From: a virus
UHGV virus genome: UHGV-1847238
Strand: one strand, 5' to 3'
DNA: 13,618 nt
Shown in pieces: positions 12,621 through 13,618 of the stretch; the first letter of the stretch is position 1; the number at the start of each line of letters is the position of its first letter. The translations under genes and the position numbers were made by a program. The notes below the pieces were generated by a model. It saw only the letters and a list, made by a program, of their open reading frames with translations, made no database searches and was not told the DNA's origin.

Positions 12621-12962
12621 ATGCGTGATATGTATGAAGTTTTGGACCGCTGGGGGGCATGGGCTGCGGCAGAAAACAGTGGTGTGGATTGGCAACAGGT
12701 AGCCGCTGGCTTTAAGGGGCTTTTACCTCATGGCAAAAAGTCCCGGATTCAGTGTGATGATGACGAAGGTATTATGGTAGACAGTTGTGTGGCTCGGTTA
12801 CGAAAGTATAAACCAGATGAGTTTGAGCTGCTCATTGTTCACTTTGTTATAGGTATTTCACTCCGCACAATTGCAAAGAAGCGGAAATGTTCGGACGGGA
12901 CTATCCGGAAGGATTTGCAATCCGCCTTGGGATTTGTTGAGGGAGTAATGTCAATGTTATAG
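12621..12962 (+). CDS. Q-like late-gene antitermination protein (small Phage_antitermQ / QuuD-like type), 113 aa
   Basis: N-terminal VLDRWGAWAA motif, recalled as typical of the small Q antiterminator family. GGAG 7 nt upstream of ATG 12621. Last gene of the rightward operon. Confidence 0.55.
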   Translation: MRDMYEVLDRWGAWAAAENSGVDWQQVAAGFKGLLPHGKKSRIQCDDDEGIMVDSCVARLRKYKPDEFELLIVHFVIGISLRTIAKKRKCSDGTIRKDLQSALGFVEGVMSML

Positions 12963-12965
12963 GTA

Positions 12966-12987
12966 AGCTGGAGCTTACGCTCCAGCT
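12966..12987. terminator. Hairpin between the convergent Q-like and C5-methyltransferase genes (possible bidirectional terminator or stability element)
   Basis: Perfect 9-bp inverted repeat AGCTGGAGC-TTAC-GCTCCAGCT overlapping the methyltransferase stop codon. No U-tract on either strand, so intrinsic termination is uncertain. Confidence 0.35.
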
Positions 12988-13618
12988 AAATATTCATAAA
13001 AACATGCCCTATAGACTCCGCCATTTTAGGTGGGACTGCATTACCAATTTGTTTAGCTTTAGAAAGCATTGAACCGATGAATATATAATCCAATGGAAAT
13101 GTTTGTAGCAGTGCAGCCTCGCGAACAGAAATTGCCCGGTGTTGCTCAGGATGGCCAAATCTTCCGTTAGAGTAACTAATGCATCTTGTAGTTAATCCAC
13201 TAGCAGGTTTATCCCATGCTAATCGGCCATATACATCGCTGTGACCTGTATGGTTTTTATGACATTCAAGTAACAACTCTTTAGGCCAAAACTCTCGACC
13301 TTTACCCTCTGGCGTTGCTTTAATTCTTTTAAGATTTAAAGCAGAGAGTTTTGCACTAACATGATCTCGTAATGTAGGATGTGATTCACCTGCCTCAATT
13401 GGTGGTATATTTCCGATCCAATCTCTTACCGTCGCAAATGGGATATCTTCGCCATTATGCGTGCGCTCTGGTAGATGGATTGGGGAATGAAGTGAGGCCA
13501 TAAGAACAAAACGCTCTCTGGTTTGAGGCACTCCGTACCATAAAGCGGGAATCACACCATAAGCTAAATTATAATCTTTCTTTTTCAGAAGAGTTATAAA
13601 ATCATGCAATGGTCCATC
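12986..13618 (-). CDS. DNA (cytosine-5)-methyltransferase, C-terminal about 210 aa; 5' end lies beyond the window edge
   Basis: C5-methyltransferase motif VIII (GVPQTRERFVLMA) and motif X (QIGNAVPP). The reading frame stays open through 13618, so the N-terminal catalytic motifs are outside the window. Confidence 0.85.
   Translation of the reverse strand, partial: DGPLHDFITLLKKKDYNLAYGVIPALWYGVPQTRERFVLMASLHSPIHLPERTHNGEDIPFATVRDWIGNIPPIEAGESHPTLRDHVSAKLSALNLKRIKATPEGKGREFWPKELLLECHKNHTGHSDVYGRLAWDKPASGLTTRCISYSNGRFGHPEQHRAISVREAALLQTFPLDYIFIGSMLSKAKQIGNAVPPKMAESIGHVFMNI

Follow-up and report, generated by a model that had tools for sequence, protein, structure and literature searches.

Nucleases of the OLD family are sorted into classes by the partner with which they are encoded: none in Class 1 (P2 Old and the Thermus and Vibrio enzymes), a UvrD-like helicase in Class 2 (Gabija GajA), a retron reverse transcriptase and noncoding RNA in Class 3 (retrons), the split AriA/AriB arrangement in Class 4 (PARIS AriAB), and a membrane protein in Class 5 (archaeal Cran1, added in 2025) (PMC10568477, PMC12796447). 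It is not settled how these nucleases discriminate self from non-self; helicases, retrons, or split sensors are employed in the known classes, most of which act by abortive infection, and the paper on the Vibrio Class 1 enzyme makes no mention of methylation. The DNA analyzed here, virus genome UHGV-1847238 (13,618 nt; the whole stretch is referred to as the window), is lambdoid prophage sequence that ends within a C5-cytosine DNA methyltransferase gene adjacent to the late antiterminator gene Q. We found that this gene is half of a two-gene cassette whose other member, just past the window edge, encodes a predicted OLD-family nuclease, and that the pairing recurs in many bacterial phyla. On balance, we think it somewhat probable that the two proteins form an ATP-dependent module that resembles restriction, is gated by methylation, and is expressed in the lysogen.

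Three features make up the right end of the window:

12621 to 12962, plus strand: Q-type late antiterminator gene, 113 amino acids (PF06530, E 1.6e-43; PHROG 79, 'anti-termination protein Q-like', E 3.8e-44)
12966 to 12987, no strand assigned: perfect hairpin of 22 nt with a 9-bp stem and 4-nt loop, AGCTGGAGC-TTAC-GCTCCAGCT (inverted repeat and folding)
12986 to 13618, minus strand: C5-cytosine DNA methyltransferase gene, the 3′ 633 nt of 1,035 nt, encoding the C-terminal 210 of 344 amino acids (PF00145, E 2e-23)

The Q gene is the final gene of the early region and forms the left edge of the cargo slot discussed below. An earlier note on this DNA had described a C5-methyltransferase, convergent with Q on the opposite strand, as spanning 12621 to 13618; the enzyme class, strand, and orientation are borne out and the gene does reach 13618, but position 12621 is the start of Q and not part of the methyltransferase. 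The methyltransferase frame stays open from position 13618, where the window ends, to its TAG stop (12986 to 12988), and the encoded fragment aligns to positions 124 to 320 of the 324 in PF00145 and contains motifs VIII (QTRERF), IX (REAALLQTFP), and X (GNAVPP). The G+C content falls from 53 to 58% in the phage early genes to 41% over this gene.

The last 1,219 nt of the window are present in 10 of 5,426 complete Escherichia coli genomes at 99.7 to 100% identity. One of these (NZ_CP095856, locus L001), which is identical to the window across all 1,219 bp, is the annotated locus in which the gene order and spacing of the cassette were read. Its prophage is integrated at tRNA-Thr beside proA and is organized as early genes, a DUF968 gene, Q, the methyltransferase gene and a gene for a 592-residue 'ATP-dependent nuclease' (both on the opposite strand), and then holin, endolysin, spanin, and terminase genes. 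The complete methyltransferase (L001 15587 to 16621, minus strand, 344 amino acids) matches PF00145 (E 6e-55), PADLOC MTase_II (E 6.8e-86), and TIGR00675 (E 4.9e-40; 138 bits against a cutoff of 100.65), and has, in order, motifs FSGCGG (I), APCQPFS (IV), IENVPG (VI), QTRERF (VIII), REAALLQTFP (IX), and GNAVPP (X); profiles and motifs thus assign it to the C5-cytosine class (PF00145/TIGR00675). The pseudogene and window-edge artifact that the earlier note had entertained are both ruled out, as the gene is intact in ten genomes, with a full 344-residue open reading frame in L001, and nothing, including a PR'-S-R lysis cassette, lies between Q and the methyltransferase. The lack of a cognate nuclease reported in the same note holds only inside the window, since the following gene lies just past its edge:

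L001 16648 to 18426, minus strand: OLD-family nuclease gene, 592 amino acids, first gene of a two-gene operon

The nuclease gene is present in all ten genomes that have the junction. In L001, it is separated from the methyltransferase gene, which is distal, by 26 nt on the same strand, and the two genes, at 4117265 to 4120104 of NZ_CP095856, occupy nearly the whole interval between Q and the late region. Their G+C content is 32 to 41%, compared with 49 to 57% on both flanks, and by base composition the cassette has the character of a horizontally acquired two-gene operon.

The assignment of the nuclease to the OLD family draws on motifs, profiles, and a structural model. Its Pfam matches are to AAA_21 (4.1e-17) and AAA_15 (3.4e-15), no Pfam model for TOPRIM scores above threshold, and in PHROGs it falls in family 3940, labeled 'unknown function'. 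In an alignment of 19 homologs (43 to 86% identity), the Walker A motif (G47-N-G-x-N-K53-S-S) and the LLDEPEVSLHP Walker B/D-loop region are invariant, as are E378-D379 and D434-G-D436 in the C-terminal third, which correspond to the Glu...DxD signature of TOPRIM domains. The spacing of these acidic residues equals that in the metal site of HEC-04, where mutation of the site abolishes defense and Walker A is also required (bioRxiv 10.1101/2024.01.29.577857; PMC12111858). An AlphaFold model (built on 26 sequences for protein P0001, which is identical to the L001 nuclease; mean predicted local distance difference test score, 86.6) has the Class 1 OLD of Thermus scotoductus as its best Foldseek match in the PDB (6p74, E 7.5e-14, 611 aligned columns), with Gabija GajA and the retron Eco8 OLD (8u7i/8sm3, 9lpa) and then PtuA and SMC heads as further matches. 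Sequence identity to the solved OLD structures is 11 to 15%, and a sequence-profile search likewise ranks 6p74 first (3.6e-11). The highest-ranking PADLOC models are HEC-04 (2.9e-34) and ATPase-Toprim_I-B (1.6e-27), and PtuA, NsnB, AriA, and GajA come next; the match to the HEC-04 model (PDLC04149, 116.5 bits) is partial, covering profile positions 154 to 385 of 494 and nuclease residues 208 to 445. The protein therefore has an N-terminal ABC ATPase, a C-terminal TOPRIM domain, and an OLD-like fold, and the catalytic motifs are intact in both the nuclease and the methyltransferase.

We examined how generally the two genes are associated. The nuclease family has at least 1,772 members in the protein database, and 80 genomic loci were taken from one-genome-per-species contigs, with all open reading frames searched with the window methyltransferase. 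A C5 methyltransferase is encoded within 5 kb of the nuclease in about 69 of the 80 (from Proteobacteria, Actinobacteria, Bacteroidota, Firmicutes, Planctomycetes, Patescibacteria, and Melainabacteria), and in about 50 of those 69 the genes are directly adjacent on the same strand, the methyltransferase being either downstream or upstream. Among IMG/VR viral contigs, the methyltransferase is present in 64 of 67 loci, adjacent on the same strand in 51 and adjacent but convergent in about 10. The genes are 0 to 30 nt apart or overlapping in many relatives, and pairwise identities of the two proteins correlate (Mantel r of 0.71 for 36 loci, with none of 2,000 permutations as high). No intact nuclease of at least 35% identity with adequate flanking sequence was found without the methyltransferase, and no complete E. 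coli genome has the methyltransferase without the nuclease. At two viral loci, the nuclease is split or truncated beside an intact methyltransferase (L141, 4935 to 6775; L151, 4914 to 6023), although sequencing error is possible. A nuclease homolog is absent from 50,697 records of deposited phage genomes, and plasmids gave two weak matches only. Taken together, these comparisons indicate that the nuclease and methyltransferase have been inherited together across long evolutionary distances.

These patterns bear directly on the proposals of the earlier note, in which the methyltransferase was seen as self-protection of phage DNA, as an epigenetic regulator, or as a solitary remnant, any of which would make its neighbor unrelated cargo. 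Orphan methyltransferases are indeed frequent in phages, the present prophage also has a Dam-type enzyme, and another prophage has a different methyltransferase in the Q-lysis interval. However, this one is transcribed opposite to all of the phage genes, it lies in one operon with the nuclease gene 26 nt upstream of it, and the pairing, with co-divergence of the proteins, holds for the majority of some 147 loci in unrelated taxa; with the close or overlapping spacing in relatives and the lack of a nuclease-free example in E. coli, a solitary methyltransferase is very improbable.

The target sequence of the methyltransferase is suggested by two observations. First, within the close clade the methyltransferase partners are orthologous, and their target-recognition region is conserved as strongly as the catalytic motifs, which suggests that they share one target sequence. 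Second, a Klebsiella protein 82% identical to the window methyltransferase is labeled 'Modification methylase HgiDII' by one source, and M.HgiDII is a characterized 5-methylcytosine enzyme for GTCGAC in a Type II system. GTCGAC may thus be the target, a lead that comes from an unverified homolog label.

A plausible model for the favored methylation-gated module is that the lysogen would transcribe the operon from a promoter belonging to it, counter to phage transcription, and that the methyltransferase would place 5-methylcytosine at a single fixed motif in host and prophage DNA alike. As in other OLD proteins, the binding or hydrolysis of ATP would serve the nuclease in assembly or translocation, and its TOPRIM domain would nick or cut entering DNA that does not carry the mark, such that the lysogen would be shielded from superinfection and the prophage incidentally stabilized. 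Several observations weigh against this model. The characterized relatives (P2 Old, GajA, PARIS, HEC-04/IbfA, and the retron OLDs) all act without reading methylation, and several of them are abortive-infection sensors. In the structural model, nothing added to the standard OLD architecture stands out as a domain for reading DNA or methyl groups, a consensus scan passed no minus-strand promoter upstream of the nuclease gene, and neither TOPRIM nor ABC is among the Type II enzyme folds in a 2008 census (PMC2441816). Finally, in distant loci the OLD-like gene is the last in operons that already have a candidate restriction enzyme, where it could be an accessory and not a methylation-sensitive nuclease.

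These larger variants of the module take several forms:

L007, L017, and L029: methyltransferase, GHKL ATPase with a Hypoth_Ymh C terminus (HATPase_c_3), and OLD-like gene
L032, and L045 on the opposite strand: related loci with a GHKL protein lacking Hypoth_Ymh
L037, L040, and L047 (Bacteroidota): methyltransferase, GHKL/HEF_HK protein, Response_reg_2 protein, and OLD-like gene
L019 2438 to 6530 and L020 3633 to 7734 (Bacteroidota): M.HpaII-like methyltransferase, R.HpaII (PF09561, 5e-143), and OLD-like gene

In L019 and L020, the start of the OLD-like gene overlaps the stop of R.HpaII in a tight three-gene operon, and other distant neighborhoods contain Z1 and DUF4420 or GmrSD and UvrD. The 2008 census describes R.HgiDII as GHKL with an unassigned C terminus, R.NmeAIP as GHKL with Hypoth_Ymh, and R.EcoUTORF4938P as GHKL with HK (PMC2441816), and the GHKL proteins of the distant variants are of these same kinds; Iyer et al. 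termed such proteins paraMORCs of restriction-modification operons with cytosine methylases. We note that GHKL and TOPRIM in one operon recall the domain set of type II topoisomerases.

Such arrangements raise the question as to whether the nuclease acts instead as a guard in abortive infection, that is, as a PARIS- or HEC-04-like sensor-effector that does not read methylation and responds when the methyltransferase, or a restriction enzyme linked to it, is disturbed by a phage factor such as a DNA mimic or an anti-restriction protein. In that case, the methyltransferase would be the partner under guard, a regulator of the antitoxin kind, or a subunit for targeting. An OLD-like gene behind a complete M.HpaII-like and R.HpaII operon, or behind GHKL 'restriction' proteins, fits this explanation, as do the two top defense-library matches and the methylation-independent action of the characterized relatives; HEC-04/IbfA is moreover a single-gene defense, and Ocr, an anti-restriction protein, sets off PARIS. 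However, the minimal two-gene form, which is the commonest among close relatives, has no other restriction enzyme to guard, and a direct functional dependence between the two proteins is favored by their co-divergence and by the conservation of the target-recognition region. Likewise, a broken nuclease with an intact methyltransferase occurs and the reverse has not been seen. We therefore consider a guard role unlikely, although it is the rival to be taken most seriously.

The behavior of the cassette at its chromosomal position provides further context. A second allele, with 60% nuclease identity, occupies precisely this position: it converges on a Q gene belonging to the same family, in prophages whose late regions are of two kinds. 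In the assembly collection, 520 blocks of it are recorded. Among IMG/VR contigs, alleles with 100, 79, 62, 60, and 59% nuclease identity all have the methyltransferase adjoining Q and convergent with it. One or other of the two cassette alleles is present in 18 of the 5,426 complete E. coli genomes, and all 18 retain both genes intact. Addiction behavior is established for Type II restriction-modification systems, and it is conceivable that the cassette keeps the prophage, or the Q-proximal segment, through post-segregational killing by a stable nuclease as methylation is diluted, with defense secondary or absent. The retention of both genes in every carrier and the persistence of divergent alleles at one prophage position beside Q are in keeping with this. 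Nonetheless, a cassette this rare is not an efficient selfish spreader in E. coli, the slot otherwise has defense-like single genes that lack addiction logic, and addiction is mechanistically a subcase of the restriction reading and not an alternative to it; as a primary role, we regard it as improbable.

To the right of the cassette, prophages with different cargo can be aligned from 'TAACGCGTACGCAAAAAG...' onward, which places the boundary between cargo and phage at about L001 18470. The shared segment and the gene that comes after it are as follows:

L001 18471 to 18500: promoter-like element, TTAACG-18-TATTAT, in the shared segment right of the cassette
L001 18531 to 18552: strong terminator, AAACCCGCC-ATTGA-GCGGGTTTTGTCGTTT, about 30 nt past the promoter-like element
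L001 from 18705: holin gene, after the terminator

The promoter-like segment and terminator resemble the PR', short leader, and tR' of lambdoid phages and may be their counterpart; an Rfam scan of the cassette and late leader gave only subthreshold chance matches. The earlier note had proposed that the methyltransferase is acquired cargo after Q. The foreign base composition and the slot support this, but the cassette is upstream, and not downstream, of the putative PR'/tR'. Because it is on the opposite strand and upstream of the late segment, it is not covered by the late transcript that depends on Q, and it should be active in the lysogen, as presumably is slot cargo in general.

On the left, homology between prophages with related Q genes stops about 14 to 27 nt short of the Q stop codon. 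A cargo-free site, in which Q is joined straight to the late promoter segment, was not found with the present Q allele among the 5,426 genomes, and the exact insertion junctions are therefore not demonstrable; the right boundary is the one defined, by comparison of prophages with three types of cargo. Different genes occupy the slot in a prophage that has another Q variant. With the same holin and a related Q, the slot contains a 1,050-residue metallophosphoesterase gene in L088 (5581 to 8733, minus strand) and a gene for a 443-residue KAP-family NTPase (PHROG 8614, unknown function) in L089 (3608 to 4939, minus strand). In three prophages with allele 2 and late regions like those of Stx phages (L082, L085, and L086), an N6_N4 methyltransferase fragment of 92 to 110 amino acids lies just past the nuclease gene (7534 to 7866), and this may be a remnant of earlier cargo. 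As judged from these comparisons, the interval from Q to the putative late promoter is a site for counter-oriented cargo and behaves as a hotspot for defense cargo.

The earlier note had also pointed to a perfect hairpin separating Q from the methyltransferase, which is confirmed at 12966 to 12987. The converging stops of Q and the methyltransferase are 23 nt apart, and the hairpin lies there, overlapping the methyltransferase stop. It is the sole perfect short-loop inverted repeat of at least 9 bp in the window, with folding energies of −17.4 and −17.6 kcal/mol on the two strands (z scores of −4.7 and −5.0 relative to shuffled sequences). A classical bidirectional terminator is not supported, as there is no T-run downstream on either strand and a terminator scan made no call there. 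The junction of the 60%-identity allele (L083 10825 to 10870, corresponding to window 12955 to 13000) has a 9-bp, 4-nt-loop hairpin of unrelated sequence, with TTTT next on the Q-sense strand; structure is thus kept between the two alleles, and sequence is not. Because the same geometry recurs, we still regard the hairpin as a structural 3′-end element, one that probably marks or stabilizes the 3′ ends of both converging transcripts.

Elsewhere in the window, the second methyltransferase identified by the earlier note is also present:

9382 or 9415 to 10068, plus strand: Dam-family N6-adenine methyltransferase gene, early region (PF05869, E 1.1e-45)

This gene comes and goes independently of the cassette among otherwise similar prophages, and it is an ordinary early-region phage gene unlinked to the cassette. 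Directly 5′ of Q (11608 to 12603, plus strand) is a gene for a 331-residue DUF968 protein with a weak HNHc_6 nuclease match, which is linked to the present Q family in all prophages in which the interval upstream of Q was inspected. The best whole-window matches among complete E. coli genomes cover 85 to 91% of it, because the prophage is a mosaic. The closest prophage overall, in strain TF5, is 98.6% identical across 331 to 12718; homology is lost in the middle of Q at about 12718, which marks a recombination breakpoint, and past this point TF5 has another Q C terminus, two hypothetical genes, a plus-strand DNA methyltransferase gene, and then DLP12-type lysis genes. At the other end, positions 1 to 330, downstream of the integrase gene, match only one complete E. 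coli genome (strain W21, 100%) and contain no tRNA gene. Related prophages abut tRNA-Thr at proA, and the window prophage may have a different attachment site or a different integrase C terminus.

If the restriction-like interpretation is correct, epigenetic marking would be a simple answer to self/non-self discrimination for a methyltransferase-linked OLD lineage, and restriction-modification would gain a new nuclease fold. Strains with the prophage should then have an additional 5-methylcytosine motif and present one more obstacle to transformation and phage therapy. The opposite-strand slot in SfV/e14-like lambdoid prophages, with its allelic series of the module and other candidate defense genes, should be useful in the mining of new systems.

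We found no literature description of an OLD/TOPRIM and cytosine methyltransferase pair, nor any account of such a pair being assayed for defense, although an earlier computational notice is possible because REBASE and the 2020 ABC-ATPase classification lie outside this literature comparison. The individual proteins belong to well-known superfamilies and are correctly named by annotation pipelines; it is their association for which we found no description. We suggest, tentatively and at somewhat less than even confidence, that an OLD nuclease may serve as the restriction half of a methylation-gated, ATP-dependent system, which would constitute a sixth, methyltransferase-linked OLD class with a fold so far unrecorded in Type II systems. 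This protein may also be the nuclease, whether true or auxiliary, of the poorly understood GHKL-type (HgiDII/NmeAI-like) systems, in which GHKL and TOPRIM together would mimic type II topoisomerase architecture.

In comparison with OLD classes 1 to 5, the nuclease shares the N-terminal ABC ATPase and the C-terminal TOPRIM domain with its Glu and DxD ligands, but its conserved partner is a C5 methyltransferase, which the class papers do not mention, and by partner it falls into none of the five. As with P2 Old and many PARIS loci, it is defense-type cargo of a temperate phage. HEC-04/IbfA, the top PADLOC match, resembles the nuclease in its ATPase-TOPRIM fusion and in the spacing of E...DxD, but is about 500 amino acids long and a single-gene system found inside Hma systems or on plasmids (PMC12111858), whereas the present nuclease is 592 amino acids long and nearly always paired with a methyltransferase. 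Relative to morons near Q in lambdoid phages, the cassette is similar in consisting of foreign, low-G+C genes between Q and lysis whose content varies among similar prophages; it differs from stx-type cargo, which is downstream of PR'/tR', in being counter-oriented and upstream of the promoter-like and terminator segment. The adjacency of methyltransferase and nuclease genes is that of Type II restriction-modification systems, and the conservation of the target-recognition region would fit a single fixed motif, but an ABC ATPase with TOPRIM is outside the folds recorded for Type II restriction enzymes (PD-(D/E)XK, HNH, GIY-YIG, PLD, and half-pipe) (PMC2441816). The HgiDII/NmeAI Type II systems likewise combine a methyltransferase with an ATP-using nuclease partner (PMC2441816, PMC2292703), and distant variants of the module have GHKL plus Hypoth_Ymh and GHKL plus HK proteins like R.NmeAIP and R.EcoUTORF4938P; the E. 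coli prophage cassette differs from these in having no GHKL gene, with the OLD-like protein as the sole partner of the methyltransferase.

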